Assembly: GCA_037130265.1 (NCBI GenBank)
Contig: JBAXTI010000002.1
Location: 26,870-90,869, forward strand
Length of the DNA: 64,000 nucleotides
Reading direction: 5' to 3'
Source of the DNA: a bacterium
GTDB taxonomy: Bacteria; Patescibacteriota; Minisyncoccia; Phycocordibacterales; JBBTRF01
Within the stretch, counting starts at the first letter, position 1. Each line of letters starts with the position of its first letter. Below the pieces are notes generated by a model. The model saw only the letters and a program-made list of their open reading frames with translations, had not been told where the DNA came from and searched no databases. Position numbers and translations under genes: made by a program. This document shows positions 31,528 through 62,700 of the stretch, piece after piece.

Positions 31528-31563
31528 GATAAAGAAACTGCTAAAAAAGGCTAAAGAAATACC
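31528..31563 (-). promoter_or_regulatory. two TTTCTTTA-type direct repeats about 22 bp apart upstream of the PemK-like gene
   Basis: The minus strand reads GGTATTTCTTTAGCC...CAGTTTCTTTATCGC. The same motif family recurs upstream of the second PemK-like paralog at 63813-63869. Confidence 0.35.
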
Positions 31564-31584
31564 TAATTTTTGTTAAAGGAATCA

Positions 31585-31623
31585 TTAAAATAAAAAACGC
31601 ACGGAGAACTAAATCTCCGCGCG
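31585..31623 (-). terminator. rho-independent terminator candidate for the MFS gene
   Basis: On the minus strand the hairpin CGCGCGGAGA-TTTAGT-TCTCCGTGCG is followed by TTTTTTATTTT. Confidence 0.5.
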
Positions 31624-31653
31624 TTTGCGTTTTCTCTCGATGTTACTCGAACG

Positions 31654-40032: not shown

Positions 40033-40046
40033 ACTAAATAAACAAA

Positions 40047-40721: not shown

Positions 40722-40745
40722 TAACTAGGTGTATAATACGAGTAT

Positions 40746-41735: not shown

Positions 41736-41745
41736 TAAGGCTTTT

Positions 41746-42501
41746 ATGAGAACTCTGCTCCTTTCGATTCTGAGCCTTTGCGTCATCTCAGTCGCGTTTC
41801 CGCTCACTGTTTTTTCTGCAGTGATGAGTAGTGGAAGCTATCAGATCCAGCTCGACTCAGTGAATGTCGGAGGTCTCGATTCCGCAAGTGCAAGTTATGC
41901 GAGTCAAGATACGTTGGGTGAAACGGGGAGTGGTGGCTCTGCAAGTGCCTCCTACAATCTGAATGCTGGGTATCAGCAGATGGAACCTTCCAGCATCTCA
42001 ATCACTAGTCCGTCGGGTGCTACGATGGGGGCCGTGAGTGGATTTTCCGGTGGGACAAGTAATGGTTCCACTACATGGACAGTCATCACGGATAATTCTG
42101 CCGGATATTCGCTTTCAGTGAGGGCGTCGAGTGCTCCGGCGATGCTGGGTCAATTGAACGGCAGTTTTATTGCGAATTATGTGCCAGCCACTTCTGATCC
42201 AGATTATACTTTCGGTGTTGGTTCCGCGAGTTCGGTTTTCGCGTATACACCAGAAGGGAATCATGTGGTGCAGCGATACAAAGATAATGGCGCCGCGTGC
42301 AATGTGGGGAGCGGAACGACGGCGGATGCTTGTTGGGATGGCTTCTCGACATCAAACGTGCAAGTGTCGGGTAGTGCCAGTGCAAACATGCCGTCAGGCA
42401 CAGATACGACACTAAAATATCGTGTCGGTATCGGCGCTTCAAAATTCCAAGACTCCGGTACCTATGAGGCGACTATCATCGTGACAGCAACGACGTTATA
42501 A
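41746..42501 (+). CDS. secreted WxL-domain-like surface protein (paralog B)
   Basis: A signal peptide is present. It carries 'TWTVITDNSAGYSLSVRASS' and C-terminal 'SGTYEATIIVTATTL'. TATAAT at 41731-41736 lies 9 nt upstream of the ATG. Confidence 0.5.
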   Translation: MRTLLLSILSLCVISVAFPLTVFSAVMSSGSYQIQLDSVNVGGLDSASASYASQDTLGETGSGGSASASYNLNAGYQQMEPSSISITSPSGATMGAVSGFSGGTSNGSTTWTVITDNSAGYSLSVRASSAPAMLGQLNGSFIANYVPATSDPDYTFGVGSASSVFAYTPEGNHVVQRYKDNGAACNVGSGTTADACWDGFSTSNVQVSGSASANMPSGTDTTLKYRVGIGASKFQDSGTYEATIIVTATTL

Positions 42502-42508
42502 TACCAGC

Positions 42509-43951: not shown

Positions 43952-44002
43952 AAAAAAGTCGATATAATCCACAGTCTGAATTGTCAAAATACTGCTAAAA
44001 TA

Positions 44003-44011
44003 AAGGCTAAT
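44003..44011 (+). promoter_or_regulatory. extended -10 element TGCTAAAAT upstream of the giant ORF
   Basis: Read directly. It lies 22 nt upstream of ATG 44034. The same TGnTA(T/A)AAT form recurs before the LamG and gap genes. Confidence 0.3.
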
Positions 44012-44033
44012 CGGACGGAAACGACGATTAGAA

Positions 44034-47000
44034 ATGAAGCGTGTTTTTCACACAATTTCTTCGAGCGTAAAAAAAGCCTTTCTGGTCTTTTTCCTACTCA
44101 ACTTTGTTTTCTCTCCAGTCTTCAACGATATCCTTCTCAGCTCGAATCTCGGCGCTCCTTTGGCGGCGAGTGTTGCAGAGGCAGCTTTCAATCAGCAGAT
44201 CAACTACCAGGGCAAGCTCACCGACACATCCAACGTGGCTGTGTCAAATGGTTCGTACAACATCGAATTCAAGTTGTACACCTCGCTCACCGGCGGCACT
44301 GCGATCTGGACCGAGACTTGGTGTAAGGGAACTTCGTGTTCCGGTACTGGCACTGACAGCCGTGTCACTGTTTCAAACGGCTTGTTCAGTACGATGCTCG
44401 GCAGCACGACGGCTTTGACTGGTGTAGATTTCAATCAGCCATTGTATCTCGGTGTAAATATCGGTGGATCGGCAAGTACCCCAACTTGGGATGGTGAAAT
44501 GACCCCGCGAAAAATTCTCGGTGCAGTCCCGGCTGCATTCGAAGCGAAGCGACTCAACGGTTTGAACGACACACAGTTCTTGCGAACCGATACCACCAAT
44601 GCAACCTCGACCGCATCGACGTTCATCACTCTCACGCAGTCTGGTGCTGGAAATATTTTGAATCTCGTCGGACAAGGTTCCGCGAGTGTCTTCACCGCAC
44701 TCTCAAGCGGCAACGTCGGCATCGGCACCACCTCCCCTGGCCAGAAGCTTTCAGTCGCCGGAGATATTTTGGGAAACAACATTATCGGTAGTTATTTTAC
44801 GGCGACAACTTCAACTGCCACTTCGACTTTTAAAGGCTTGAGCGCAACTGCTATTGCTGCCAACAAATACATTACCTCCGACGGTACATTCCAATTCACC
44901 TCACCATACGCGGGGACACTCAATGTCACTACTCAACAGATTGGTCAAAACGCAATACTCAGCGCGACATCGCAGACGGGTAAGATTTTCAGCTTCGTCT
45001 CCAACGATACTTTGGCAACCATTAGTACTCAACCCGGTGTGCCGCTCGTGTTGAATACTGCGGGCAGTGAGAGGATTCGAATCGGTACCGCTGGTCTTGT
45101 CGGTATCGGAACTACAACCCCATGGAGGACCCTTTCCGTCAACGGCTCATCAGACCTCGGCACCAACGCTCTTGCTGGATACTTCACCGCCACCTCATCA
45201 ACCGCCTCCGTCTTCCCATACGCCTCCACCACCGCACTCACGGTATCTGGTACCAATGGTCTCCAGCTCGCATCAGCATTGAACGGTCCTCTTCAGGCAA
45301 ATGGGGGACTTGTCTCTGCCACCACCTCAGTCGGCGTTTTGTACGGTGGCACCGGCCTCACCTCTGCGCCTTCATACGGTCAGCTTCTCATGGGCAATGC
45401 CTCAAATGGATACACTTTGTCTGCCACCTCTTCTCTCGGCCTTCTCGGTTCATCGACGGTCTCGTCACTCACCTCAAGCTATGTGCCAAAGTGGGGAGGT
45501 TCAGCGTTTTCAAATAGCAATCTGTATGATGATGGGACAAATATCGGTATTGGAACCACGACCGGACTGTCGAAACTTACCGTAAACGGCATCGCACGGT
45601 TTAACAGCAATCAGGATCCAGGCGATTATTTCTACACCAATGGGATTTCAAGTGATGGTCGTATTGAATTCCGTTCTGCTGATAATGGCAACGGCGGAAA
45701 TCAGCGAATATTTATGTCTTCTGGGTACAGTACTGGTTGTGTCGGATTTGGAAATAGTGCCGATAGCGCTTCCAATAACTCTTTGAGTTGTGGAGGTAGT
45801 ACGGGCAACTCCATCGTCGCGACTCCAGGTGCACTTTCGATGGTTTCGGTGAATATTGGAGGTATTCCTGGTGTTGGAACAACTAAGGGTTTAAACATCG
45901 CTACTCCATATAGTGCAAGTGGCATCTCAACTAGCTCAAATAGTATGGTCGACATTAGTACTTTTTCAGTCATTGCAAACGCCGCAACAGGTCAACGTCC
46001 GGGTATTCATTTTACAGCGCTTCAGTACGCTTTTGGTGTCGGTGATACGTACGCAGGTGCCGGTGATGGTTACAGTACTCGGGCAATGACGATCGCAAGT
46101 AGTACTGAGATTGGTATCGGTACCAGTACTCCATACGCAAAGCTCTCACTTCTCGGCACTTCTGCGACAATGTCGACCTTTGCGCTTGTGCCAAAGGCTT
46201 CTCAGACCGCGAATATTTTGGATATTTACAACACCGCCTCGACTCCTGTCCTTACCTCGGTGATTACTGCCGCAGGCAAGTGGGGTATCGGCACTACTTC
46301 TCCAGGACAGATGTTGTCTGTCGGCGGAGATATCTTGGGTAATGTCCACATCGGTACATACTTCACTGCAACCTCCACTGCCGTGGCTTCTACCTTCCCA
46401 TACGCCTCAACCACTGCACTCTCAGTCTCTGGAGCTTCATACTTCACTGGCCTTTCAACCTTCGCCAACCTCCTCGCAACCGGCTCCTCAACTCTCCAAA
46501 ACCTCACTTTCATCAACGCCACTGGTACCAACGCGACGACAACGAACTTCTTCGCGACCACCGCTTCATCGACAAATCTCTTTGCTTCAAATCTTGCGGT
46601 GGGAGGAAACGTGCTGACAACAAGTGGGGGAAATGTCGGCATCGGGACGGCGAGTCCAAATGCTAAATTACACGTATCTGCTCCTTTAGATGATTTAGCT
46701 CCTCCCGCTCTCGGCACAATTAGTGCAAACACATCGGCATATTTCACAAATCAAAATCCACTCTACGGTTTGATGGTTGGAAGTTTGACAGGTGGCCCTA
46801 CTTATTTGCAAGTACAAAGAACAGATAGTGCCACAGCGTATAGTTTATTGTTGAATCCAAACGCAGGCAACGTCGGCATCGGCACCACTTCTCCAGCCAC
46901 CACTTTGTCTGTTGCCGGCTCTGGATACTTCACTACTGGTATTGGTGCGGGTGTACTCAATACCACCACAGGTACTATCAAGGCAAGCGTGAGCTATGAC

Positions 47001-50000
47001 ACGTCAGATTCTACTGGTCTGTACAAGATAAATGGCTCAACGATGTTGTCTGCTTCGACCACTAACGCCAACTATTTCTTCGGTACGAGCCCGGCAACGC
47101 TTCAAACAACCTTCTCAGGCACAAACAACTTTGGCCTCGGCTTGAACGACCTCAACGCCAATACCACAGGCTCTGGAAACGTCGCGATGGGTCGAGACGC
47201 GATGTTGGCAAATACTACGGGCGCCACAAACGTGGCGATCGGTTATTTGGCGTTCCGCAATGCAACCACTTCAGGTTCTGATAACGTGGCGATCGGTAAC
47301 TTGGCGCTTGCGGGGACGGCGAGCGTTGCAAACACGGGCAGTAACAACGTTGCCATTGGTCCATCAGCTCTGTTTGCTAACACATCGGGTGCTAGTAATG
47401 TCGCTATTGGTCCGAGTGCGCTCGCCTCAAACACCACCGGACAATTCAATATCGGTATTGGAAATCAGGCCATGACATCAAACGCGGCAGGACAGAACAA
47501 CACGGTCCTCGGTGTCAGCTCGATGAAGTATACGAAAACGGGTAACTACAACGTTGCCATCGGTACTTCGGCGAACCAGTACAACATGTCAGCTACCTCT
47601 ACGACTATCGTTGGAGAAGAGGCTGCGCAGGGTGTGAATAATGTTTCTTACTTCCAAAATGTAACTGCTTTGGGGTACCGTTCGTTGTATGCCATTACAA
47701 CAGCAGATGACACCACGGCTGTCGGTTATGGTTCTGGTGGGTCAGTAACGAGTGGAGTACAAAACACCTTTGTGGGTTCAAACTCAGGTGGAGGTGTTAC
47801 GACGGGTTCAGGCAACACACTCATTGGATACAACACAACCGCGACCGGAGCTACAATCTCAAATGCTATCGCTATCGGTTCGGGAGCGTCGGTAGGTTGT
47901 TCGAACTGTGCGGTGTTGGGCGGTACGAGTGGATCCGCAGTGATTGTCGGTGTGGGCACTTCTACTCCATATGCAAAGTTGAGTATTCAAAACGGTGTTG
48001 CCGCTACTACTACTATGGCACTTGTTCCTGCTGCTTTACAAACTGCCAACATCCTCGACATCTACAACACCGCCTCGACTCCTGTCCTTACCTCGGTGAT
48101 TACTTCCGCAGGCAAGTGGGGTATCGGCACCACTTCTCCAGGACAGATGTTGTCTGTCGGCGGCGACATCTTGGGTAACGTCCATATCGGTACATACTTC
48201 ACCGCGACCTCAACTACCGTCGCCTCAACCTTCCCATACGCTTCTACTACAGCACTCTCAGTCTCTGGAGCTTCATACTTCACCGGCCTTGCCACCCTTG
48301 GTAACGCTTCTACCACCCAGATCGGCTCGACCGGTTCTGCTTACTTCGTGACAAGTGGAACGGGAAGTGTGGGTATCGGCACCACCTCTCCCGCTACCAC
48401 ACTCTCTGTCGTTGGTAGCATTTACAATACAGGCGGTATCGGAGTAGGAAAGCTAAATACTACAGCCAACACCATTGACCTCGGTGTGGGTGCCACAGGT
48501 GCTACGTCAGGACTATACAAAATCAACGGTACCACTGTCGTCTCCGCTTCCTCGACCCTCAGTAACTTCTTCTTTGGAACGCTTCCTCCAACACTCAGTA
48601 CAACCATGACAGGTTCTAACAACAACGGTATCGGTGCTGGTGCATTAAACTCTCTCACCACAGGTCTTGAGAACAATGCTATCGGAGTAAACGCTGCTGC
48701 AAACCTCACAACTGGACAGTACAACATCGCTATTGGGCGAGATGCGATGCTCGCTAATACCGTCGGTAATAGAAACATTGCTATTGGCTATTTGGCAGAC
48801 CGAAACGCTACATCTTCATCTGTAGATAACATTATGATTGGTCAGAGTGCGGGTGCAGGTGTTGCGGCGAGTGGTCGAATCAGCACCTCTATTGGAAACA
48901 TCGGTATTGGTAACAGTTCCCTAAAACTTGTAACGTCTGGTACATATAATACGGCGGTTGGGTATGGCACTGCTTCAAACCTAGCAGATGGTTCACAGAA
49001 TATGTTCTTCGGAGCCTTTTCGGGAGCAGCCATGACTTCGGGAGGAGGAAACGCTGCGATTGGGTACAATGCAATGGGACTCACAACGTCGGGTTCAAAC
49101 AACCTAGCAGTCGGCACGAATTCTCTAATGGGAAACATCACAGGTATACGAAACGTATGTGTCGGTACGGGCTGTTCACAGTATAACCAATCAGCAACTT
49201 CCACTGTTGCCATTGGATATGCGGCGGCACAGGGTTCAAGTAACTACAGCGCACAAGGTATCGTAGCAATAGGAGATGCGGCACTCAGCTCGGTAACAAC
49301 AGCTTCGGACTACAATACCGCTATCGGGTATCAAGCTGGATACAGCAACGCAAACGGTACAGGAAATACATACATTGGCGCAAGTGCTGGTGTCAACAAT
49401 ACGTCAGGTTCAAATAACATCATGATTGGGCGAGCTACAGACTTTGCTGGCAACATTTCCTACTACATGAACATTGGAAACTTCCTATACGCTACCTCAA
49501 CAACGGCAGGAAGTGCCTTCGGGTCGTTCGGCATCGCTACCACAACACCTTCTGCTCGGTTCTCAATTAAGGGACTAGGTACTGGTACTGGTCGTTTACT
49601 CGCTTTCTCCGACTCAAGCAACGTGGAGCGACTGACGATGTTTGATAACGGTAATGTCGGCATCGGCACCACTTCTCCATGGCGAACACTTTCGGTGAAC
49701 GGCTCATCTGACCTCGGTACCAACGCTCTCGCTGGATACTTCACCGCAACCTCGACCACCGCTTCCACCCTCCCATACGCTTCCACCACCGCACTCTCCG
49801 TCTCCGGAGCTTCATACTTCACCGGCCTTTCAACCTTTGCCAACCTCCTCGCAACCGGCTCCACCACCCTCCAAAACTTCACCTTCGTAAATGCAACTGG
49901 TACCAGTGCTACCACCACCAACTTCTTTGCAACCACGGCGTCTTCAACTAACCTCTTTGCAAGTACCGCCAATCTCAACGCAGCAACCATCGGTACTACT

Positions 50001-53000
50001 CTCGGAGTCACCGGTGCTACTACTCTCTCCTCAACTCTCAATGTCACCGGCCTCACCACCCTTGGCAACGCTTCTACTACCCAGATCGGCTCAACCGGTT
50101 CTGCGTACTTTGCGACGAGTGGGGGGAATGTGGGCATCGGGACGACATCGCCTGGTTCGAAACTTGATGTAAACGGAGATATCAATGCGAACACTTATTA
50201 TCGTTATAAAGGCGGGATATTTGTCAACGCATCATCAACTAAACAGAATATGTTCGTCGGTATGGGTGCTGGAAATCTCACCACAACTGGAATTGGTAAT
50301 ACTGCGATTGGATATAATTCTGGCGCTGCACTAACAACTCAAAATGCCAGCATTAATCCTTTTCCAGTTCAAGCTGACACATTCATTGGAACGAACGCTG
50401 GCGCAGCGAATACTTCAGGAGATTCTAACGTTTTTGTAGGTTACAATGCTGGCGCAGTAAATACTTGTGGTCGCTCGACAGTTGCAATCGGTGCCTATGC
50501 TGGGGCGAGCTATGTGAGTGAGCCTGGATGTCCAGATATTGAAAATGGACTAAACGTCTTTATCGGTTCAGCTGCTGGACAATATATTACTGCTGGTTTG
50601 CATAACGTCTTTATTGGTGAAGATACTGGGCTACTCATGCAAAGTGGCTCGAACAACACCTTCCTTGGTTCGCATGCGGGCACAGGAATACTTACTGGCA
50701 ATGAAAGCACATACATCGGCGGTAGTGCTGGAGATTTCGCTTCAACTACTGGTGATGGAAACATCGGTATCGGAGTAAGATCTGCTCTATATCTTGATGG
50801 TTCCGCACAGTATAACGTTTTTCTTGGGAATGGCGCTGGCGCAGGTACTGAGGCTAATCCTAACGTAGCTTCGTTTAACACAGCTGTTGGTACTGGGGCA
50901 GGTTATCTGTTGACTACAGCCACTGGCGCAACTTTCTTGGGCTATCAAGCTGGATTGCAGGTCACCACTGGATACAGTAACACTCTTGTCGGTTATCAAG
51001 CCGGGTGGAATCTAGTGAGCGGTGTAAATAACACCTTCTTGGGTTATCAGGCTGGTTATAATACAACTGGTTCAGCAAATATTTTCCTTGGTGATCAGGC
51101 GGGAGCTTCTAATACTACTGGCTCAAACCAGTTTGTGGCCGGTGGAGATCATGCAAACTATCTCATTAGCGATGTATATTTCGGTCGAGGTATAAACAGC
51201 GCGACTCCTAGCACGTACACTATCCACGGAACTGGTGGCCTCGGTACAAATATTACTGGTGGTGATATCAATATTGCTGGTGGAGCAGGAACAGGATCTG
51301 GAGTGGGTGGAAATATCATTTTCCAGACTTCGAATACTGGGAGCTCAGGAACTACTTTGAATACGCTCTCCGAAAAAATAAGAATTACTAATTCTGGGAA
51401 AATAGGCATCGGTACTACAACCCCATGGAGGACGCTCTCCGTGAACGGATCATCCGATCTCGGTACCAACGCTCTCGCTGGATACTTCACCGCAACCTCG
51501 ACCACCGCTTCCACCCTCCCATACGCTTCCACCACCGCACTCTCCGTCTCCGGAGCTTCATACTTCACCGGCCTTTCAACCTTTGCCAACCTCCTCGCCA
51601 CCGGATCTTCCACCCTCCAGAACTTCACCTTCGTGAATGCTACTGGTACCTCAGCTACCACCACCAACTTCTTTGCTACTACTGCATCTTCTACTAACCT
51701 CTTCGCAAGTACCGCTACATTCAACGCCGCTTCAATTGGTACCACTCTTTCAGTCACTGGCCTTACCACTCTCGGCAACGCTTCTACTACTCAGATTGGT
51801 TCAACTGGTTCTGCATACTTTGCGACGAGTGGGGGGAATGTGGGCATCGGGACGACGACGCCAGATGGAAATTTAACTGTATATAATCCGTCAGGAGCAA
51901 GCACAGTAGATATTATGGGAAGTAGTGCTGGGTCATTGCTTAGGATTTCCCAGGGAAGCACTTTGGCTCAAGGAACAATTGATTTGGGAGTACACTCACC
52001 ACAGGCTGGTTTATTCCGTAGTGGCGGCACAAGTGGATTTGTTGCGTACGATACTGGGACTGGTGACACTATATTGAATAATGTTTTCGGTGGATCTAGT
52101 TTGTTGAGATTAAATTACGGTGGGACTACGGCTTTGGCAATAAATAGTAGTGGCAACGTCGGCATCGGCACCACCTCTCCTGGCCAGAAGCTTTCAGTGG
52201 CGGGAGATATCTTGGGTAATGTCCACATCGGTACATACTTCACTGCAACCTCCACTGCCGTGGCTTCTACCTTCCCATACGCCTCAACCACTGCACTCTC
52301 AGTCTCTGGAGCTTCATACTTCACCGGCCTTTCAACCTTTGCCAACCTCCTCGCAACCGGCTCCACCACCCTCCAAAACTTCACCTTCGTAAATGCAACA
52401 GGAACTAATGCAACGACAACGAATTTCTTTGCAACTACGGCGAGTTCAACTAATCTTTTTGCTTCAACTGCCACCCTCAACACTGCTTCAATTGCAAATA
52501 CTCTCAATGTCACCGGCCTCACCACCCTTGGCAACGCTTCTACTACCCAGATCGGCTCAACCGGTTCTGCGTACTTTGCGACGAGTGGGGGGAATGTGGG
52601 CATCGGGACGACGAGCCCGACGACGGCTTTGTTGGCAATCCAAAATAGTTCTGGACATTCATTCGATATATTTAGCACCGCAAATGGTTCTGCTGGGACA
52701 GCGATGACGATCAATGTAAATACTAGTTCAGCAAAAGCTCTGCAGATCAATTCAAATACGACAGACACCCCAATTACTGTGACTCACGTAGATCCTGGAA
52801 ACGTCCGAAATGCGGATATTTTCGGTATCAATATAAGTGAGACCCTAAACTCGATTGGCAATATCGGTGCCAATGATTACAAGTACGGTGGCGGAAACTT
52901 TGAGGTAACACAAAATGCTTCACCAGCTACTGCAAAAGATGTGTTCGGTGTTCGAGGAGTTTCAACAGCAAACAATGTTAATTTTACTGCGTACGGCGGA

Positions 53001-56000
53001 TATTTTAGTGGTAACTCAACGAACGGTACAGCTTACGGTGTCTATTCAGCTGCCGGAAAGAACTATTTTAACGGCAACCTCGGCATCGGCACCACCACTC
53101 CAGGCCAGAAGCTTTCGGTAGCGGGGGATATTTTGGGTAACAATATTATCGGCTCATACTTCACGGCGACTTCGACAACCGCTTCCTCGACTCTCAATTC
53201 CGCCCTTGGCATCGGCACGACAACCCCAAGTGCACGTTTGGCGATCACTGGATACGGCACCGCTGACACTGGCCGAGCTTTTGCGATCGCCAATAGTTCA
53301 AATGCTGAAAAGCTTTACGTGACAGACAGTGGCAAGACACGATTCAGTAATTTTGTGGCAATTAACTCTGATCCAAGCACAAACAACGGCACCGGCGCGA
53401 CTCTGTACGTAAAGCAGACTACGGGCTCGACAGGGTTCCCGTTCCAGGTTGTGAACACTTCAGATACAAACCTGTTCAGTGTAGATACATCTGGAAATAC
53501 AAACACAGCTGGCTCCGTCACCGCTTCTGCAAATGGATTCATTACTTCGTCCAGTGGAGGCGCTGCCTTCTTGCGCTTGACGCATACCTCCGGACGCTCA
53601 TTTGAAGTTCGCAGTAATAGTTCTTCGTATTTCTCTATCTACGACGCGACAGCTTCTGCTGATCGGTTGGTTGTGGCTGGCATTGGCACTGTTGGTATCG
53701 GCACCACCACCCCCTACGCTCAACTTTCTATTGTCAGCGGTGCCGCAGCCACCACCACTCTTGCCCTCAAGCCAGCCGCATCTCAAACCGCCAATATCCT
53801 GGATATCTACAGCAATGACGCAACTCCTGTCTTGAAATCGGTCATCACAGCGGCGGGCAAGTTCGGCCTCGGCACCACCTCCCCTTGGCGCACCCTCTCC
53901 GTGAACGGCTCATCAGACCTCGGTACCAACGCTCTTGCAGGGTACTTCACAGCTACTTCATCAACTGCCTCAGTCTTCACATATGCATCGACGACCGCAA
54001 TCTCTGCATCGGGTTCGGCATACTTTGCTACGAGTGGGGGAAATGTGGGTATCGGCACCACCTCTCCTTGGCGAACTCTCTCGGTCAACGGCTCATCCGA
54101 CCTCGGTACCAACGCTCTCGCTGGTTCCTTTACCGCAACTTCTACGACTGCCACTTCCACCTTTGCTGGCTTTATTGACGTCAATGGTACCGGCTCCAAT
54201 GCCACTTCCACCTTTGCTTCAAATCTTTGGGTGAAGGGTGCGATGAAGATCGGTACAAACTCGATCTATCTGAATGGTGCAGCGACTTCCACCTTCGGTG
54301 CAGGTATCAATCTCACCACTGGCTGCTTCTCGGTGAACGGTACTTGTGTTGGTGGTTCGAGTGCGGCAGTGGCAATTGGTAGTGCTATTACTGGCGGTAC
54401 CGCTGGCTCAGCGCTTTTCGTGGACGTTTCTGGAAATATTGCTCAGGACAATACGAATTTCTTCTGGGACAACTCGAGCAAATATTTAGGAATCCAAACT
54501 GCCACCCCAGGGTATCCTCTTGATGTAAATGGCACCGCTCATGCGACGACCTTGAACGCGGGCACCATTACCGACGGTGCAGGCTTTACTGTTACCGGAG
54601 GCACTATTGGTGGGGGTGTATGGAACGGCACAGCAATCGGTACAACGTACGGTGGCACTGGTATTAACTCTTCAGGCTCAACTGGTGTGGCTCAGATATC
54701 TTCAGGAACCTGGAGCGTCGGAGCTATCGATATTAGTTCCTCAAGCAATGTCACGGGCACATTGTCAGTGGCAAATGGCGGTACTGGCGCGACCTCATAC
54801 ACCGCTGGGTCAATTACTTTCTCAGATGGTACGAATCTTACGCAGGATAATGCAAACCTGTTCTGGAACAACTCGAGCAAATATTTAGGAATCCAAACTG
54901 CCACCCCAGGGTATCCTCTTGATGTAAATGGCACCGCTCATGCGACGACCTTGAACGCGGGCACCATTACCGACGGTGCAGGCTTTACTGTTACCGGAGG
55001 CACTATTGGTGGGGGTGTATGGAACGGCACAGCAATCGGTACAACGTACGGTGGCACTGGTATTAACTCTTCAGGCTCAACTGGTGTGGCTCAGATATCT
55101 TCAGGAACCTGGAGCGTCGGAGCTATCGATATTAGTTCCTCAAGCAATGTCACGGGCACATTGTCAGTGGCAAATGGCGGTACTGGCGCGACCTCATACA
55201 CCGCTGGGTCAATTACTTTCTCAGATGGTACGAATCTTACGCAGGATAATGCAAACCTGTTCTGGAATAATTCCACAAAGGCTTTGGGAATTGGCGATAC
55301 TGCTCCTGGTGCGAAGCTTTCGGTAGTGGGTAATGCATCGATTGGTTATGCGACTGGTCAGACCGCGCCGACAAACGGATTGTTAGTGGCTGGTAGTGTC
55401 GGCATCGCCACCACTTCTCCAAGCCTCGCAACGTTTACTGTTGAGGGAGGTTCAGGTGCCACAACAGCTTTCTTCACAGGGAGCGTCAATAGCTATCAGG
55501 AGGTGCTTAATCAAAATCGAAGCAATGGTACGAGTGCTTCGACTGACTTTGTTGCAGTAAACAATATCGGTAATGCAAGTTCTTACTACGTGAATTTGGG
55601 TATTAATAGTTCTGGTAATGCCGACCCTTCTTACACCCTCTTCTCCGCAAATGACGCCTACCTATACTCGAGTGATTCAGCCTTAAACCTCGGTACTGCA
55701 AGCACTACCAACACGAACGCAGTCATCAAATTCTTCACTGCTGGCACGGTCGCTGGCAAGGAGCGTGCCCGGTTCAGTTCGACGGGTAACTTCGGCATCG
55801 GCACGACCTCCCCTGGCCAGCTCCTTTCAGTCGCAGGTGATATTTTGGGCAACAATATTATTGGCAGCTACTTTACGGCGACGAGTACGACAGCGACATC
55901 GACCCTCGCTGGGGGATTTACCATGGGTTCAAGTGGTCTTAATGCGTATGCAAACGGCAAGGTTGGCATCGGCACAACCACCCCACAGTGGCTGCTCAAC

Positions 56001-58466
56001 TTGCAGTCATCGACCGCTCCACAGCTTGCTTTGTCGGCTGGTGCAGGTATAGCACAGTGGGCATTTAGAAATGCCGGTGGCGACCTCTACTTTTCTACCA
56101 CCACCACCGCCGGTACAGCGACCACGAGCACCGCCGCTTTCTCGGTCTCTGGTTCCGGCTTCGGTACCACCACTCTTCGCGGGTTGACCATCTCTGGCCA
56201 GGCAACCTCAACTTCGAATGTCGGCTTCAATCTCACAGCGGGTTGCTTCGCGGTGAACGGCACTTGTGTTGGAAGCAATAATGGTACTTCTCAGTGGACC
56301 ACTACGGGTTCAGATATTTACTACACCACCGGCAAAGTGGGTGTAGGCACCACAACTCCATGGGCTAACTTCTCAGTGGGTACTCATAACCTGGCGATCA
56401 CCACACCGTCTTTCGTGATTGCTTCTTCGTCGGCGGCCCTCGCGACGTCAACTCAGTTTATTGTCACAAATGGCAAGGTCGGAATAGGTACTTCGACTCC
56501 AAACTGGATGCTCCAGGTGGCGAACACCCGTCCGTCCTTTGCGCTTTCTGACACCAATGCCGGTGCCAACTTGAAACACTGGACACTTTCGTCGCAGGGC
56601 GGTAATTTCTACTTTGCAACATCTTCCGATGCGTTGGCAACATCGACCACCCCGGCAGGCATGTTTAATAGCAGTGGTTGGTTTGGTATCGGTACCACCT
56701 CACCATGGGCACCGCTGTCGGTTGCCGGTATTAGTGCGGCTACTTCTTTCTACGCCACCGCGACTACTTCGACTTCTACTATGGCCGGCAGCTTGAATGT
56801 GGGTAACGGTGCGCTCTTCTACGATTATGCCGGTGCGTACACTAGTATCGACAACTTGCAGATCGGTGCGATGGCTTTCGATACCAACGCCGGTGCTGTG
56901 AGCTGGGCAGATATGCCAATCACTTCAGCGGCTGCCGCAAGTACTACGGAAAGCTACACCGCACAGTTGGGAGGTAATGCCGTGCTCACTATCTACGGTG
57001 AAGCTGATGGCGCCGGCGGCGTGAACACCCTCCGTGTTGGTATCGGTACCACCTCTCCGGCTGGTGCTGCGGCTGGTCCGCTCACCATGGCTTCGGGGGC
57101 GTATGTTACTACCGGTGGTACTTGGACCAACGCTTCGAGCCGAGCTGGGAAGGAGAATTTTACAGCACTCGATTCACTTGATGTGTTGCAGAAGATCAAC
57201 GCCCTTGATGTGACCCGATGGAATTACAAGAGTGAGTCAGCAGGTACTACTCATATTGGTCCAGTGGCAGAGGACTTCTACGCTGCGTTTGGTACTGGTA
57301 GTGGTCCAGGTTCTATCTCGACCATCGACCCTTCCGGTGTCGCGCTTATTGGTATACAGGCGCTGTCTCGAGGCTTTGATATCTCTCATGCAGGTACAAC
57401 CACCCCTTCTATTCAGTCACTCTTTGTGGGCACCACCACTCCGGCTCTTTCGATCGACGCTGCTGGCAATATCGGTATCGGTACTTCCTCTCCGGCATAC
57501 AAGCTTCATGTGTTAGGTGATATCGCGGCAACTTCTTTTGTAAATATCAGTACACGTGAGGCCAAGAAGGATATTAGCTATCTCTCAGCAGCGGAAAACG
57601 AAAGCGCACTGAACAAAATAAAGGGCCTCAATGTTGCGACGTATCGATACAATATTGAGTCGGAAAGTAACCCGCTTCGACTGGGTCTCATCGCTGAGGA
57701 GGCACCTGCCGAGATCCTCGCGGCTTCAGGAAAGGGTGTGGATATTTACAAGCTTTCAACCTTTATCCTCGCCGGAGTGAAGGCACAGCAGGTGAAAATC
57801 GAGTCCCTCGAATCTCGAGTCGCGCACCTCGAGGCGGTGCAGGGCGGTGGTTCAACATCGAATGGTGCCGCCGGCATTGCCGAATATCTCAGCTCGATGG
57901 GCGCCCAGCTCTCCGCTTCGGTGTCACGATTCCGCAATGTCCTCGCTGAGTCCCTCACCGTCGGTACTGCCGAGAAGCCATCGGGCATCACTCTCTATGA
58001 CGAAGTCACCAAGCAGCCATACTGCTTGAAGATTTCTGGTGGTGCACCGGTGAGTGTGCCTGGCGAATGTGCTGCAGTATCTGCAGGCGGTACTTCAGGT
58101 ACCACTAATACCACGACAGGCGGGACCACTCCTGGTGGTTCAGGGACTACGACTACTCCAGTGGTAGGTGATACCGTTGCACCGGTCATTACAATCAATG
58201 GCAACAACCCGGCAAATATCGACAAGGGGGCTTCGTATAATGACCTCGGCGTAACCGTGACCGATAATATCGATAATAACCTCGGTATTACCACCACAGG
58301 CGATCAGATAGACACCACCGTTGCAGGCACTTATACTGTTCATTACAGTGCGACAGACGCAGCAGGGAATACCACAAATGCAACTCGCACGGTGATTGTG
58401 TCAGAAGTCTCTGTACCGAGTGCGGCTCCTGATGTCTCTGTGTCTACGAGCACAACTACTCCATAA
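44034..58466 (+). CDS. giant (4810 aa) repeat-rich secreted/anchored surface fibre protein with two tandem peptidase-S74-like intramolecular chaperone segments and a C-terminal DUF5011-like Ig domain
   Basis: It is a single uninterrupted ORF with an N-terminal hydrophobic segment. About 4300 aa of Gly/Thr/Ser/Ala/Asn-rich degenerate repeats follow, built on 'GNVGIGTTSPGxKLSVAGDILGN' and 'WRTLSVNGSSDLGTNALAGYFTATS' modules. A 'LSVANGGTGATS' motif is present. Residues ~4366-4445 (NASSRAGKENF...IGIQAL) and ~4505-4600 (NISTREAKKDI...ESRVAHLE) each carry the S-x-R-x-x-K Ser-Lys dyad pattern and downstream blocks typical of tail-spike chaperone domains. The C-terminus 'VITINGNNPANIDKGASYNDLGVTVTDNID..GTYTVHYSATDAAGNTTNATRTVIV' is DUF5011-like. 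Confidence 0.85.
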   Translation: MKRVFHTISSSVKKAFLVFFLLNFVFSPVFNDILLSSNLGAPLAASVAEAAFNQQINYQGKLTDTSNVAVSNGSYNIEFKLYTSLTGGTAIWTETWCKGTSCSGTGTDSRVTVSNGLFSTMLGSTTALTGVDFNQPLYLGVNIGGSASTPTWDGEMTPRKILGAVPAAFEAKRLNGLNDTQFLRTDTTNATSTASTFITLTQSGAGNILNLVGQGSASVFTALSSGNVGIGTTSPGQKLSVAGDILGNNIIGSYFTATTSTATSTFKGLSATAIAANKYITSDGTFQFTSPYAGTLNVTTQQIGQNAILSATSQTGKIFSFVSNDTLATISTQPGVPLVLNTAGSERIRIGTAGLVGIGTTTPWRTLSVNGSSDLGTNALAGYFTATSSTASVFPYASTTALTVSGTNGLQLASALNGPLQANGGLVSATTSVGVLYGGTGLTSAPSYGQLLMGNASNGYTLSATSSLGLLGSSTVSSLTSSYVPKWGGSAFSNSNLYDDGTNIGIGTTTGLSKLTVNGIARFNSNQDPGDYFYTNGISSDGRIEFRSADNGNGGNQRIFMSSGYSTGCVGFGNSADSASNNSLSCGGSTGNSIVATPGALSMVSVNIGGIPGVGTTKGLNIATPYSASGISTSSNSMVDISTFSVIANAATGQRPGIHFTALQYAFGVGDTYAGAGDGYSTRAMTIASSTEIGIGTSTPYAKLSLLGTSATMSTFALVPKASQTANILDIYNTASTPVLTSVITAAGKWGIGTTSPGQMLSVGGDILGNVHIGTYFTATSTAVASTFPYASTTALSVSGASYFTGLSTFANLLATGSSTLQNLTFINATGTNATTTNFFATTASSTNLFASNLAVGGNVLTTSGGNVGIGTASPNAKLHVSAPLDDLAPPALGTISANTSAYFTNQNPLYGLMVGSLTGGPTYLQVQRTDSATAYSLLLNPNAGNVGIGTTSPATTLSVAGSGYFTTGIGAGVLNTTTGTIKASVSYDTSDSTGLYKINGSTMLSASTTNANYFFGTSPATLQTTFSGTNNFGLGLNDLNANTTGSGNVAMGRDAMLANTTGATNVAIGYLAFRNATTSGSDNVAIGNLALAGTASVANTGSNNVAIGPSALFANTSGASNVAIGPSALASNTTGQFNIGIGNQAMTSNAAGQNNTVLGVSSMKYTKTGNYNVAIGTSANQYNMSATSTTIVGEEAAQGVNNVSYFQNVTALGYRSLYAITTADDTTAVGYGSGGSVTSGVQNTFVGSNSGGGVTTGSGNTLIGYNTTATGATISNAIAIGSGASVGCSNCAVLGGTSGSAVIVGVGTSTPYAKLSIQNGVAATTTMALVPAALQTANILDIYNTASTPVLTSVITSAGKWGIGTTSPGQMLSVGGDILGNVHIGTYFTATSTTVASTFPYASTTALSVSGASYFTGLATLGNASTTQIGSTGSAYFVTSGTGSVGIGTTSPATTLSVVGSIYNTGGIGVGKLNTTANTIDLGVGATGATSGLYKINGTTVVSASSTLSNFFFGTLPPTLSTTMTGSNNNGIGAGALNSLTTGLENNAIGVNAAANLTTGQYNIAIGRDAMLANTVGNRNIAIGYLADRNATSSSVDNIMIGQSAGAGVAASGRISTSIGNIGIGNSSLKLVTSGTYNTAVGYGTASNLADGSQNMFFGAFSGAAMTSGGGNAAIGYNAMGLTTSGSNNLAVGTNSLMGNITGIRNVCVGTGCSQYNQSATSTVAIGYAAAQGSSNYSAQGIVAIGDAALSSVTTASDYNTAIGYQAGYSNANGTGNTYIGASAGVNNTSGSNNIMIGRATDFAGNISYYMNIGNFLYATSTTAGSAFGSFGIATTTPSARFSIKGLGTGTGRLLAFSDSSNVERLTMFDNGNVGIGTTSPWRTLSVNGSSDLGTNALAGYFTATSTTASTLPYASTTALSVSGASYFTGLSTFANLLATGSTTLQNFTFVNATGTSATTTNFFATTASSTNLFASTANLNAATIGTTLGVTGATTLSSTLNVTGLTTLGNASTTQIGSTGSAYFATSGGNVGIGTTSPGSKLDVNGDINANTYYRYKGGIFVNASSTKQNMFVGMGAGNLTTTGIGNTAIGYNSGAALTTQNASINPFPVQADTFIGTNAGAANTSGDSNVFVGYNAGAVNTCGRSTVAIGAYAGASYVSEPGCPDIENGLNVFIGSAAGQYITAGLHNVFIGEDTGLLMQSGSNNTFLGSHAGTGILTGNESTYIGGSAGDFASTTGDGNIGIGVRSALYLDGSAQYNVFLGNGAGAGTEANPNVASFNTAVGTGAGYLLTTATGATFLGYQAGLQVTTGYSNTLVGYQAGWNLVSGVNNTFLGYQAGYNTTGSANIFLGDQAGASNTTGSNQFVAGGDHANYLISDVYFGRGINSATPSTYTIHGTGGLGTNITGGDINIAGGAGTGSGVGGNIIFQTSNTGSSGTTLNTLSEKIRITNSGKIGIGTTTPWRTLSVNGSSDLGTNALAGYFTATSTTASTLPYASTTALSVSGASYFTGLSTFANLLATGSSTLQNFTFVNATGTSATTTNFFATTASSTNLFASTATFNAASIGTTLSVTGLTTLGNASTTQIGSTGSAYFATSGGNVGIGTTTPDGNLTVYNPSGASTVDIMGSSAGSLLRISQGSTLAQGTIDLGVHSPQAGLFRSGGTSGFVAYDTGTGDTILNNVFGGSSLLRLNYGGTTALAINSSGNVGIGTTSPGQKLSVAGDILGNVHIGTYFTATSTAVASTFPYASTTALSVSGASYFTGLSTFANLLATGSTTLQNFTFVNATGTNATTTNFFATTASSTNLFASTATLNTASIANTLNVTGLTTLGNASTTQIGSTGSAYFATSGGNVGIGTTSPTTALLAIQNSSGHSFDIFSTANGSAGTAMTINVNTSSAKALQINSNTTDTPITVTHVDPGNVRNADIFGINISETLNSIGNIGANDYKYGGGNFEVTQNASPATAKDVFGVRGVSTANNVNFTAYGGYFSGNSTNGTAYGVYSAAGKNYFNGNLGIGTTTPGQKLSVAGDILGNNIIGSYFTATSTTASSTLNSALGIGTTTPSARLAITGYGTADTGRAFAIANSSNAEKLYVTDSGKTRFSNFVAINSDPSTNNGTGATLYVKQTTGSTGFPFQVVNTSDTNLFSVDTSGNTNTAGSVTASANGFITSSSGGAAFLRLTHTSGRSFEVRSNSSSYFSIYDATASADRLVVAGIGTVGIGTTTPYAQLSIVSGAAATTTLALKPAASQTANILDIYSNDATPVLKSVITAAGKFGLGTTSPWRTLSVNGSSDLGTNALAGYFTATSSTASVFTYASTTAISASGSAYFATSGGNVGIGTTSPWRTLSVNGSSDLGTNALAGSFTATSTTATSTFAGFIDVNGTGSNATSTFASNLWVKGAMKIGTNSIYLNGAATSTFGAGINLTTGCFSVNGTCVGGSSAAVAIGSAITGGTAGSALFVDVSGNIAQDNTNFFWDNSSKYLGIQTATPGYPLDVNGTAHATTLNAGTITDGAGFTVTGGTIGGGVWNGTAIGTTYGGTGINSSGSTGVAQISSGTWSVGAIDISSSSNVTGTLSVANGGTGATSYTAGSITFSDGTNLTQDNANLFWNNSSKYLGIQTATPGYPLDVNGTAHATTLNAGTITDGAGFTVTGGTIGGGVWNGTAIGTTYGGTGINSSGSTGVAQISSGTWSVGAIDISSSSNVTGTLSVANGGTGATSYTAGSITFSDGTNLTQDNANLFWNNSTKALGIGDTAPGAKLSVVGNASIGYATGQTAPTNGLLVAGSVGIATTSPSLATFTVEGGSGATTAFFTGSVNSYQEVLNQNRSNGTSASTDFVAVNNIGNASSYYVNLGINSSGNADPSYTLFSANDAYLYSSDSALNLGTASTTNTNAVIKFFTAGTVAGKERARFSSTGNFGIGTTSPGQLLSVAGDILGNNIIGSYFTATSTTATSTLAGGFTMGSSGLNAYANGKVGIGTTTPQWLLNLQSSTAPQLALSAGAGIAQWAFRNAGGDLYFSTTTTAGTATTSTAAFSVSGSGFGTTTLRGLTISGQATSTSNVGFNLTAGCFAVNGTCVGSNNGTSQWTTTGSDIYYTTGKVGVGTTTPWANFSVGTHNLAITTPSFVIASSSAALATSTQFIVTNGKVGIGTSTPNWMLQVANTRPSFALSDTNAGANLKHWTLSSQGGNFYFATSSDALATSTTPAGMFNSSGWFGIGTTSPWAPLSVAGISAATSFYATATTSTSTMAGSLNVGNGALFYDYAGAYTSIDNLQIGAMAFDTNAGAVSWADMPITSAAAASTTESYTAQLGGNAVLTIYGEADGAGGVNTLRVGIGTTSPAGAAAGPLTMASGAYVTTGGTWTNASSRAGKENFTALDSLDVLQKINALDVTRWNYKSESAGTTHIGPVAEDFYAAFGTGSGPGSISTIDPSGVALIGIQALSRGFDISHAGTTTPSIQSLFVGTTTPALSIDAAGNIGIGTSSPAYKLHVLGDIAATSFVNISTREAKKDISYLSAAENESALNKIKGLNVATYRYNIESESNPLRLGLIAEEAPAEILAASGKGVDIYKLSTFILAGVKAQQVKIESLESRVAHLEAVQGGGSTSNGAAGIAEYLSSMGAQLSASVSRFRNVLAESLTVGTAEKPSGITLYDEVTKQPYCLKISGGAPVSVPGECAAVSAGGTSGTTNTTTGGTTPGGSGTTTTPVVGDTVAPVITINGNNPANIDKGASYNDLGVTVTDNIDNNLGITTTGDQIDTTVAGTYTVHYSATDAAGNTTNATRTVIVSEVSVPSAAPDVSVSTSTTTP
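54468..55267 (+). repeat. perfect tandem duplication of a ~399-bp (133-codon) unit inside the giant ORF
   Basis: The two ORF-track entries 54577-54888 and 54976-55326 have identical translations offset by exactly 399 nt. Direct comparison shows sequence identity from about 54468 to about 55267. Confidence 0.8.
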
Positions 58467-58471
58467 TCCAC

Positions 58472-60565
58472 ATGCACACTTACTTCTCTAAAATTTGTTT
58501 CGGCGTCAGTCTCACGGTTCTTTTATTGTGCAGTGTGGTTCCTGTGTATGGAGCTGCAAAAATCAATACACCAGTGACTGGTCAAATGAATACAGGGCTT
58601 GTTGGGTACTGGACATTCGATGCTCCTGATACGAGTTTTGTATCGAATACTGTTACTGACAAGTCGGGAAGTGGTAATACCGGAACAATGATCAGTATGG
58701 CTACAAGCACCTCACGAGTCCTCGGCAAGCTTGGACAGGCACTCTCTTTTGATGGGGTGGCGAAATATATCTCATTGCCAAATCTCGATAGGCAGGCCCC
58801 TTTGTCCATCGCTTTTTGGACAAAAAGAGGGAGAACCGGGCAGGCGAGTGACAACATTATTGGGGGGAGTTGCGGATCGTGGGGGATTGGATTCAATGCA
58901 AATAATACACTTTTTTTGACAAACACGTGCGTGAATGTCGCAAACTCAACGGGTACTATTGCGGATACTACAAAATGGCATCATGTAGTCGTCACCTACG
59001 ATGGTTCGAATGCTCGTTTTTATTTCGACGGAGCTCTGGATTCTTCTCCGGTGTATGCAAGCGGTACGTTCAATAGTAGTGCGGTGGCGTATACGATTGG
59101 CAGAGTAAATGTTACTGCCTATTACAAGGGTTCGCTCGATGATGTGCGTGTGTACAGTAAAGTTTTGAGTCAGAGAGAGGTGACCACTTTGTATACACTT
59201 GGCCAAGAAACCATCCAGAAGTCACAGAATAATAAGGTGACTAGCGGCCTGACGCATCTGTGGACATTTGATGGTGCTGATCTCAATACAATTACAAAAA
59301 CCGTGTATGATCGAGCTGGGACCACCAACGGTACTATTGTGGCTTTGGCGACAAGTACTCAGTTGGTAAACGGCGCTCTTGGTCAGGCTTTTAATTTTAA
59401 TGGAACTAGTCAGTATGCTTCTTTAGCCGATATTAATACAGCCCTTAATCCACCGGCAAGTATTGCTCTATGGATAAAGCGCGGACAAACCAGCGCTGCC
59501 GCTGATGAGGGTATAATCGGGTACTCCGGTTCTGGATGCACCGGTCAAAATGTGTGGGGGGTCGGTATTGCTTCTGGAGCGAATGCGAATAAACCATTTC
59601 TTACTGAGGTTGGTATTGGCGCGCAGTATCCAACAGGCACTATTACCGATCGTAATTGGCATCATTTGGTACTAACGCTAGATGGTACGAATATTCGTTT
59701 CTATATTGATGGAGTTTTGGACTCCACGGTGGCAAATGCTACTACCTTTACCTGCGTTGCTTCTTCTGCGTTTGCCATTGGAACAGTTAATACTAGTGGT
59801 TGGTACAAGGGAGCGGTCGATGACATCCGTATGTATAATAGAGTTTTGTCTGCGAATGAGGTTAAAAGTCTCTATTCGATTGGTAAATCTACCATCCAGA
59901 AATCACAGAATACAAAGGTAAATACGGGGCTTGTTGGACTATGGTCTTTTGATGGGGCAGACATGACTTCAACTGTAGCCACCGACCGAAGTGGCAATGG
60001 TTATAATGGCACACTCACGAACATGACCCTCAAGAATGTAGTCACCCCAGGAAAGATTGGCCAGGCTCTCCAGTTTCAAGGTGGTTCGGCGTATATACTC
60101 ACCGCTAACGATATTATGAGTAATCCGACCGGTCTAACGATCGCATTTTGGATGAAGTCGGCCACTATCCCTGCATCAACCCAACGCGTGTTCTCCGTTG
60201 AAGGAGCTTACGTGATCACTCTGACCACGGCCGGCAAACTGCAGGGCATTGTGGATGGTGCAGAAGCCGAGTACGCGCAGACTTCTGTTATCAGCGATAA
60301 CAAGTGGCACCACGTCGCGTTTACGCATAATGGCGCAATTGCGGGTGGAAGGATCTATGTCGATGGGGTGGCGAGTAGTACGTTTACGGGTTCCTCGTAT
60401 AGTGGATTCTATAATATTAACTCTCTGACACGCCCTGTCGCCATCGGTGGAAATGTTTCCCCGAACCCCATCTCGCCATTTATTGGCTCGCTCGACGATG
60501 TTCGGCTGTATAATAGAGTCATCACCAATGCAGAGATCACTCGTCTCTATAGCATAGGAAAATAA
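58472..60565 (+). CDS. secreted protein with three tandem LamG-like (concanavalin A-like lectin/glucanase, Laminin_G_3-type) domains
   Basis: A signal peptide is present. Three repeats each begin 'GL(V/T)G(Y/L)W(T/S)FDGAD' and end 'DDVR(V/M)Y(S/N)(K/R)VLS..E(V/I)..LY'. It lies 5 nt after the giant ORF stop. Confidence 0.8.
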   Translation: MHTYFSKICFGVSLTVLLLCSVVPVYGAAKINTPVTGQMNTGLVGYWTFDAPDTSFVSNTVTDKSGSGNTGTMISMATSTSRVLGKLGQALSFDGVAKYISLPNLDRQAPLSIAFWTKRGRTGQASDNIIGGSCGSWGIGFNANNTLFLTNTCVNVANSTGTIADTTKWHHVVVTYDGSNARFYFDGALDSSPVYASGTFNSSAVAYTIGRVNVTAYYKGSLDDVRVYSKVLSQREVTTLYTLGQETIQKSQNNKVTSGLTHLWTFDGADLNTITKTVYDRAGTTNGTIVALATSTQLVNGALGQAFNFNGTSQYASLADINTALNPPASIALWIKRGQTSAAADEGIIGYSGSGCTGQNVWGVGIASGANANKPFLTEVGIGAQYPTGTITDRNWHHLVLTLDGTNIRFYIDGVLDSTVANATTFTCVASSAFAIGTVNTSGWYKGAVDDIRMYNRVLSANEVKSLYSIGKSTIQKSQNTKVNTGLVGLWSFDGADMTSTVATDRSGNGYNGTLTNMTLKNVVTPGKIGQALQFQGGSAYILTANDIMSNPTGLTIAFWMKSATIPASTQRVFSVEGAYVITLTTAGKLQGIVDGAEAEYAQTSVISDNKWHHVAFTHNGAIAGGRIYVDGVASSTFTGSSYSGFYNINSLTRPVAIGGNVSPNPISPFIGSLDDVRLYNRVITNAEITRLYSIGK

Positions 60566-62687: not shown

Positions 62688-62700
62688 TTCTGCTATAATT

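Follow-up and report, generated by a model that had tools for sequence, protein, structure and literature searches.

The window analysed here, a 64,000-nucleotide stretch of contig JBAXTI010000002.1 (GenBank assembly GCA_037130265.1) in whose coordinates all positions below are given, carries a 14.4-kb gene at 44034..58466 on the plus strand that encodes a 4,810-residue fibre protein. We consider it probable that this protein is a Sec-exported, phage-tail-fibre-like surface fibre of Paceibacteria-type bacteria of the candidate phyla radiation (CPR), that it has the architecture of the mosaic adhesive trimers (MATs), and that it is mounted on the cell via its N-terminal domain and attaches a partner. 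The protein alone is of a known kind, and its size is not unique; the new point is the near-universal linkage, in Paceibacteria-type genomes, of its family with an upstream cluster of chaperone-, pilin- and anchor-like genes, which was hinted at, but not analysed, in a recent preprint (Troman 2026).

The fibre gene is one ATG-initiated open reading frame (ORF) of 4,810 codons with zero internal stops in the ORF list and its translation, and its product is dominated by small and polar residues (T 15.3%, G 14.0%, S 12.1%, A 11.7%, N 8.0%); the single uninterrupted, Gly/Thr/Ser-rich 14.4-kb ORF described in an earlier reading of the letters alone (hereafter, the sequence-only reading) is confirmed. 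In the ENA metagenome, the source contig (165 kb, about 21x coverage) carries a called gene for the identical protein. It is scarcely credible that collapsed or chimeric repeats have created a false giant ORF, the artefact (by frameshift or repeat collapse) that the sequence-only reading had named as its own undoing. Suspicion could arise from the fact that the majority of relatives in public metagenome-assembled genomes (MAGs) are partial and lie at contig ends, and from a 399-nt tandem duplication inside the gene (54462-55267, 2.0 copies, 99% identical), which encodes a 133-residue module. However, a stop-free frame of 14.4 kb is impossible by chance, and independent relatives of 4,986, 4,801, 4,746 and 3,563 residues are known, the 4,986- and 3,563-residue proteins sharing the gene neighbourhood as well; because the three largest of these come from independent assemblies, the size of the fibre is not an assembly artefact. 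Since the remaining internal DNA repeats are only 60-89% identical, with the exception of one 113-nt copy at 100%, the uncertainty is limited to the copy number of the 399-nt repeat in this short-read assembly, and that number may also vary within the population. GC skew is negative across the gene (44000-58000) and positive in the rest of the window; we did not take this as a sign of gene transfer, as the codon effect of the Thr/Ala/Ser content plausibly explains it.

The protein is divided into the following parts, all encoded on the plus strand:

44184..44567, +, residues 51-178: conserved N-terminal beta-sandwich domain (family alignment and AlphaFold2 model)
44034..44183, +, residues 1-50: signal peptide or hydrophobic helix (basic, then hydrophobic sequence; AlphaFold2 helices at 10-25 and 27-35)
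44568..57134, +, residues 179-4367: mosaic shaft of repeated modules (self-comparison, motif scan)
47121..47933, +, residues ~1030-1300: first block of ~17-residue N-x-A-I-G...N-T-T-G repeats, tail-spike-like (periodicity, phrog_4636)
48591..49523, +, residues ~1520-1830: second block of 17-residue repeats (self-comparison, 17-residue motif spacing)
50211..51203, +, residues ~2060-2390: third block of 17-residue repeats (self-comparison, motif spacing)
54462..55267, +, residues 3477-3745: 133-residue module in tandem (399 nt x 2.0, 99%), containing LSVANGGTGATS
57135..57443, +, residues 4368-4470: first Peptidase_S74 intramolecular chaperone domain, dyad S4368...K4373 (SSRAGK; PF13884)
57444..57548, +, residues 4471-4505: short fibre segment between the S74 domains with the 28th capping loop (aligns with Bd3182, 8OJN, E 8e-7)
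57549..57848, +, residues 4506-4605: second Peptidase_S74 domain, dyad S4506...K4511 (STREAK), ending in a predicted coiled-coil-like helix (Pfam)
57939..58079, +, residues ~4636-4682: small conserved two-Cys domain (ITLYDEVTKQPYCLK...PGEC), also in C-terminal homologues, e.g., P0117
58188..58400, +, residues 4719-4789: Bact_surface_Ig-like domain (DUF5011; PF16403, full profile length)

The N-domain is the most conserved part of the family, with a mean column identity of 61% over 19 relatives, and is modelled with high confidence by AlphaFold2 (predicted local distance difference test values of 92-98 over most of residues 61-160, one 10-residue block at 81). The model has no specific structural match in the PDB or among viral structures, and comparison with BFVD gave generic fn3-like matches only. 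We propose that it is the cell-proximal docking domain of the fibre.

The shaft is built from modules that each end in a V-G-I-G-T-T-S-P-x-x-K-L "capping loop." The motif G[IVLF]G[TDI][TSA][TSAN]P occurs 28 times in the fibre, 27 of them in the shaft, compared with 0.02 on average when the protein is shuffled 200 times. Of the two repeat modules proposed in the sequence-only reading, the GNVGIGTTSPxxKLxVxG core stands with these 28 copies, whereas LSVANGGTGATS has two occurrences only, one in each copy of the 399-nt duplication. When the PDB was searched by sequence, only two fibres of Bdellovibrio bacteriovorus matched, Bd2133 (8OND) and Bd3182 (8OJN), both via the loop-motif modules; the segment 4100-4620 gave E values of 2e-6 and 8e-7, respectively, and residues 4145-4240 align with the trimeric beta-helix of Bd2133. 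Two phage families were also matched, namely, the "tail spike protein" family phrog_4636 (E 5.6e-43; seven stretches, the best at 938-1202), whose matches come from the three blocks of 17-residue repeats, and the tail fiber family phrog_9942 (E 8.5e-10), so that the search for phage fibre repeat families suggested with the sequence-only reading was positive.

The strength of the tail-spike match raises the alternative that the fibre is a tailspike-like enzyme whose beta-helix blocks depolymerize capsule or cell-wall glycans of a host. S74 domains are, moreover, typical of endosialidase-type spikes. Against this, Pfam and NCBIfam searches revealed neither a catalytic domain nor a glycosidase family, the repeat blocks are without a solved enzymatic relative, and PHROG names are annotations rather than tested functions; we regard an enzymatic spike as distinctly improbable.

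The C-terminal region has a fixed plan. Peptidase_S74 (PF13884) scores 59.0 bits against a cutoff of 22 in two stretches (4368-4419 and about 4506-4600 by Pfam), and PF16403 scores 59.5 bits against 27 (E 3.3e-16), both as expected from the sequence-only reading. After the second S74 domain come a helical stretch, the two-Cys domain, which has no Pfam family, a Thr/Gly linker, and the Ig-like domain, all of which are common to relatives; the last is 70% identical to that of the orthologue P0369. Tandem S74 domains are found in 20 of 117 C-terminal relatives. Among the S74 domains of relatives, 129 of 137 retain the Ser...Lys pair (family consensus, VNISTRxAKKDI), and therefore the catalytic apparatus looks selected. 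A Pfam match to HCBP_related was disregarded, being marginal (21.8 versus 21.4 bits) and with no single stretch passing on its own.

These features together resemble those of the MATs of Bdellovibrio (Caulton 2024, PMC10769870). MAT fibres have a signal peptide and an invariant ~130-residue beta-rich N-domain without a PDB homologue, for which the surface partner is unknown, followed by a meandering trimeric beta-helix with the capping-loop consensus V-G-G/N-pi-x-x-P-x-x-x-L and by an autoproteolytic S74 domain (SDxxxK) or another tip; they are ~1,000 residues long and are displayed on the predator surface (PMC10769870). The CPR fibre shares with Bd3182 and Bd2133 the signal peptide and subsequent ~130-residue beta-rich N-domain (the N-domains being likened by size, position, and type only), the lack of a specific PDB homologue for that domain, a capping-loop shaft with direct sequence similarity to the solved Bd2133/Bd3182 modules, and a C-terminal S74 domain; both kinds of fibre, furthermore, occur in bacteria living on other bacteria. 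There are also clear differences. The CPR fibre has 4,810 rather than about 1,000 residues, two tandem S74 domains with S-S/T-xxx-K instead of SDxxxK, and a conserved extension after S74 (the Cys domain plus the DUF5011 Ig-like domain); it belongs to CPR bacteria, a group thought to be without an outer membrane, and its gene lies in a conserved operon with chaperone- and pilin-like genes, which has not been reported for MATs. CPR proteins are not mentioned in Caulton 2024 or its tables (PMC10769870). Judged by its sequence, the fibre is likely a member of the MAT family.

The likeness to phage fibres and spikes such as the K1F endosialidase (3GW6) and the T5 L-shaped fibre pb1 (4UW8) lies in the S74 Ser-Lys dyad, in the PHROG tail matches, and in a repetitive beta-helical trimer upstream of S74, which is predicted in the CPR fibre; the phage-tail-fibre-like character claimed from the sequence alone is thereby supported. 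In contrast to those fibres, that of the CPR is cellular, predicted to be Sec-exported, far longer, and set in a housekeeping neighbourhood, and ~200 residues continue past S74. The tail matches and the S74 domain would also suit a tail fibre of a prophage or of a phage-derived particle (a tailocin or an extracellular contractile injection system) integrated at this place. However, the gene is flanked by housekeeping genes and the pilus-like cluster, with no capsid, tail, baseplate, or integrase genes, the protein carries an N-terminal signal peptide, and the chromosomal position is syntenic across species. In addition, no relatives were found among IMG/VR viral contigs with either the N-domain profile or the C-terminal 488 residues (a single-protein scan, which finds close relatives only), and these empty scans speak against the locus being derived from a phage. 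We therefore hold it to be very unlikely that the gene encodes a prophage or tailocin fibre.

Directly upstream of the fibre gene are five co-directional, tightly spaced genes (39583-43951), none of which is above a Pfam cutoff:

39583..40032, +: u149, small secreted or membrane protein, first cluster gene, short version (called gene)
40047..40721, +: u224, signal-peptide pilin-like protein, paralogue of u251 (28% identity to u251)
40746..41735, +: u329, membrane-anchored protein with signal peptide, two beta-sandwiches, and C-terminal transmembrane helix (chaperone-usher chaperone/WxL-interacting protein fold)
41746..42501, +: u251, pilin-like secreted protein, distant relative of the CPR pilus tip protein PamT (NCBIfam NF058579)
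42509..43951, +: u480, signal peptide, fibronectin type III (FnIII)-like domain(s), C-terminal transmembrane anchor; candidate membrane anchor or base (from sequence)

Linkage was counted in those 66 loci of species representatives in which at least 4.5 kb of sequence precedes the start of the fibre gene. A homologue of u251 is present in 61 of these and one of u480, directly before the fibre, in 60; u329 has homologues in 46, u224 in 44, and u149 in 41 (median homologue length, 338 residues). All three of u329, u251, and u480 stand together on the same strand directly before the fibre in 48 of the 66 loci. The cluster stays with the fibre even at loci with other outer flanks, as in a Taylorbacteria MAG in which it lies in an M23 peptidase neighbourhood, compared with GatB here. 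In a Logan contig (L090:4328-6581), a u480 homologue is followed by a minus-strand ORF in place of the fibre start before the contig ends, which could be a fibre-less variant or a mis-join. In L091, the closest species representative, an extra gene just upstream of the pilus-like cluster (L091:2953-4452) encodes a 499-residue S74 plus Ig-like "mini-fibre" that is missing from this window.

The annotation of the cluster proteins rests on distant similarities. u251 matches the PamT model NF058579 with an E value of 9e-10 but only 38 bits, far under the cutoff of 240, and is not a PamT equivalog; nonetheless, 25 of 48 members of its family match the same model (E ≤ 1e-3; best, 1.3e-14). u224 is without a Pfam or NCBIfam family, and u480 gives weak Pur_ac_phosph_N/PhoD_N (fn3-like) matches, its C-terminal hydrophobic stretch being read from sequence. 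u149, u224, u329, and u480 have no NCBIfam matches even at E ≤ 10, the presence of PamA/PamB models in that library not being established. As in the Pam operon of "Ca. Mycosynbacter amalyticus," the cluster combines CPR-specific secreted Ig-like subunits, an FnIII-type membrane anchor, a chaperone-usher-like chaperone held by a C-terminal transmembrane helix (u329 here), a match to the PamT model (u251), and a tail-fibre-like gene nearby; a "tail fibre-like protein" consistently adjoins pam pilus operons in CPR, and sequence searches overlook many Pam homologues (Troman 2026, 10.64898/2026.03.03.709456). Unlike the Pam operon, no PamA, PamB, or PamE-type major pilin is recognized here, the PamT match is 38 versus 240 bits, and the cluster comes from Paceibacteria-type genomes, not from Saccharimonadia or Microgenomatia. 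A PemK/MazF-like toxin gene also adjoins a major facilitator superfamily (MFS) transporter gene in the window (31107-32874, minus strand). The conserved pam neighbourhood of M. amalyticus has an MFS transporter and a MazE-like antitoxin (Troman 2026, 10.64898/2026.03.03.709456); the likeness may be coincidence.

A second parallel is offered by the WxL clusters of Firmicutes, which encode a small WxL protein, a large WxL adhesin, and a WxL-interacting protein (WxLIP) composed of DUF916-DUF3324 and a transmembrane helix (Hassan 2023, PMC10599100; PDB 9I1Y). The logic of the cluster is similar, and u329 has the WxLIP-type fold with a transmembrane helix, the Pfam WxLIP_PGBD matches being below cutoff. 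No WxL domain was found in u224 or u251 (Pfam E ≤ 0.01) or in the fibre (E ≤ 0.1), and the large adhesin here is, unlike that of the WxL clusters, a phage-like fibre predicted to be trimeric.

The fibre gene is separated from u480 by a short gap:

43952..44033, +: 82-nt intergenic gap with -10-like elements and no terminator (consensus matches only)

The elements are TATAAT at 43963-43968 and TGCTAAAAT at 43993-44001. The sequence-only reading had given the fibre its own extended -10; this is only a consensus-like match, and a private promoter is not supported. Our scan called no promoter in the gap and no terminator-like site between u480 and the fibre, and overall it gave fewer promoter-like sites than were obtained with shuffles. 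The fibre gene appears to be the last large member of a conserved operon; this arrangement had escaped the earlier note.

Two lectin-like genes follow the fibre:

58472..60565, +: LamG1, secreted, three Laminin_G_3 (ConA-like lectin) domains (PF13385, E 8.7e-73, three stretches)
60612..62687, +: LamG2, secreted, three Laminin_G_3 domains (PF13385, E 9.8e-68)

LamG1 starts at 58472, 5 nt past the fibre stop, confirming the sequence-only reading on this point, and LamG genes lie directly after the fibre in the four closest genomes (this window, L091, L002, and L003) but are rare in more distant loci. NCBIfam matches of the LamG proteins to TafC (107 and 75 bits versus a cutoff of 410) most likely reflect the shared LamG-type domain, and fimbrial membership was not accepted. 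At the end of LamG2, a 447-residue GTG-initiated ORF of the list (62431-63774) overlaps the gene; the called GAPDH has 357 residues and starts near 62701.

Relatives of the fibre were sought with its N- and C-terminal parts separately. The C-terminal 550 residues have 648 database relatives and the N-terminal 330 residues have 431, most of them labelled "partial." Those named by taxon are of the Patescibacteria/Paceibacteria type (Taylor-, Yonath-, Kaiser-, Nomura-, Vogel-, and Niyogibacteria and others) or are called simply "bacterium," the exceptions being one "Nitrososphaera sp." match and one protein of a Burkholderiales-labelled MAG. The proposed origin in a small-genome, possibly episymbiotic bacterium is borne out to the extent that named relatives are nearly all from Patescibacteria/CPR. 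The 7,453-residue protein P0375 (NCBI MCM2339341.1), a member of the N-domain family labelled "Burkholderiales bacterium," is either from a mis-binned CPR contig or a sign that the family extends beyond CPR.

A profile of the N-domain detected 384 loci among GTDB species-representative genomes and, in a search of 1.84 billion representatives, 34,480 matches at E ≤ 1e-3, 13,420 at E ≤ 1e-10, and 722 at E ≤ 1e-30; the 34,480 matches suggest a wider distribution. Complete genes at the species-representative loci encode about 500-3,341 residues, ten genes exceed the 10-kb flank (at least 3,500 residues), and about 49 are cut by a contig end. The best 150 N-domain matches include proteins of 7,453, 5,744, 5,078, 4,986, 4,801, and 4,746 residues, plus twenty more of 3,000-4,000. 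The size stressed by the sequence-only reading is accordingly common in the family, and such proteins do not go without a name beyond "hypothetical," as it had supposed, since NCBI calls relatives "tail fiber domain-containing protein." Within this very large family, whose members are usually broken in assemblies, the fibre is large but unexceptional. The giant proteins reported for Omnitrophota (West-Roberts 2023, 10.1101/2023.11.21.568195) offer a parallel, in that those proteins, too, are secreted, have several thousand residues, belong to putatively host-dependent nanobacteria, and are often broken in assemblies.

The closest species representative, GCA_964602975.1, has cluster genes whose products are, in order, 139, 226, 326, 251, and 477 residues long, followed by a 4,986-residue fibre, a LamG gene, and then GAPDH, and a groundwater relative has a 3,563-residue fibre at the same place. 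The first 200 fibre residues are 87% identical to both relatives, and the cluster proteins are 49-78% identical to those of the closest representative (L008). Beyond about residue 300, the fibres are no longer collinear; the same module types recur, 26-83% identical, differently ordered and differing in number, and the identity of the S74 region to that of the orthologue is only ~30%. Phage receptor-binding fibres and the "mosaic" MATs show the same combination of a fixed base with a shaft and tip that are reshuffled, and this analogy, together with the pattern of conservation, makes a role in host or partner attachment plausible.

This pattern bears on a further alternative, according to which the protein is a general envelope or matrix fibre (a coat, spacer, or biofilm component) that recognizes no specific partner. 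Its presence in very many CPR genomes (384 species-representative loci; 13,420 clusters at E ≤ 1e-10), the low-complexity Thr/Ser/Gly-rich composition, and the lack in Pfam searches of a recognizable receptor-binding tip besides the Ig-like domain would all fit such a structural role. However, the shaft and distal parts are reshuffled and diverge fast between close relatives while the N-domain holds steady at 87% identity, and in this lineage lectin-like LamG genes are attached to the locus. We therefore judge a nonspecific envelope fibre unlikely and favour an attachment fibre.

An attachment fibre of the MAT type would work as follows. The chain would be exported unfolded by means of its N-terminal signal peptide; the C-terminal S74 domains, like their solved homologues, would trimerize and nucleate the folding of the upstream chain, and the trimeric beta-helical shaft would then be templated from the C to the N terminus, its turns capped by the V-G-I-G-T-T-S-P-x-x-K-L loops. 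S74 would probably cleave itself afterward at S4368 and/or S4506. The N-domain would hold the fibre at the cell surface, where, in view of the linkage, the likeliest partners are the products of the upstream cluster: the membrane-anchored protein of chaperone-usher/WxLIP fold, one or two PamT-like pilin-like proteins, and the transmembrane-anchored FnIII protein. The fast-evolving, shuffled shaft and tip, perhaps along with the downstream LamG lectins, would bind the surface of the host or partner. Scaled from Bd3182, which measures about 550 Å for about 760 residues (PMC10769870), the fibre could be roughly 0.3 µm long by extrapolation, about one CPR cell diameter. A tentative extension, which we consider possible but less than an even chance, is that the cluster is the dedicated assembly and docking machinery of the fibre, forming a hybrid organelle of Paceibacteria in which a short donor-strand-type base carries the ~0.3-µm phage-like trimeric fibre via its N-domain.

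Several observations weigh against this picture. The linkage could mean co-regulation of separate surface structures instead of physical coupling, and the LamG association is lineage specific, not general. The block of 17-residue repeats has no PDB sequence match and no relative solved, as far as sequence goes. The S74 motif is S-S/T-x-x-x-K, not the canonical S-D-x-x-x-K, its second residue being mostly T or S. Furthermore, S74 cleavage as in phages would free the conserved Cys and Ig-like domains, which is awkward for an adhesive tip; either the freed part is a separate piece, released or non-covalently retained, or cleavage does not take place at both sites.

The window also carries housekeeping and glycan genes. 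The fibre locus is flanked by GatB, Obg, GAPDH, RpiB, Rpe, and transketolase genes. A polysaccharide/glycosylation cluster (1-24500) encodes a Wzm/Wzt-type ABC transporter with a Wzt_C domain, several GT1/GT2 glycosyltransferases, two asparagine-synthase-like proteins, and one methyltransferase, and contains one further gene near its end:

22206-24488: 760-residue Wzy_C (O-antigen-ligase-like) protein with tetratricopeptide (TPR) repeats

This last protein could be a protein O-glycosylation or polymer ligase. The sequence-only reading had made the fibre the substrate of this neighbouring glycosylation machinery; the glycosylation genes, however, end at ~24.5 kb, ~19.5 kb upstream of the fibre, with MurB, SecA, PLD, enolase, iPGM, Obg, and GatB in between, and nothing links the two. 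Scans of the window for tRNAs and Rfam families were empty.

Apart from a few cultivated Saccharibacteria, little is known of the means by which ultra-small CPR bacteria locate their hosts and hold on to them. A fixed N-domain and operon combined with a shuffled shaft are what a host-range determinant would show, and complete copies in their context, as in this window, are useful references for a family that is usually fragmented in MAGs. The cluster linkage suggests, in a form that can be tested, how a cell lacking an outer membrane could carry such fibres, and it may bear on the mounting of MATs. If the docking model is true, it would name the surface partner of the MAT N-domain, which was called unknown by Caulton 2024 (PMC10769870), and would offer a candidate, accessible to genetics, for the organelle by which a large part of the CPR recognizes hosts, with internal module shuffling generating specificity.

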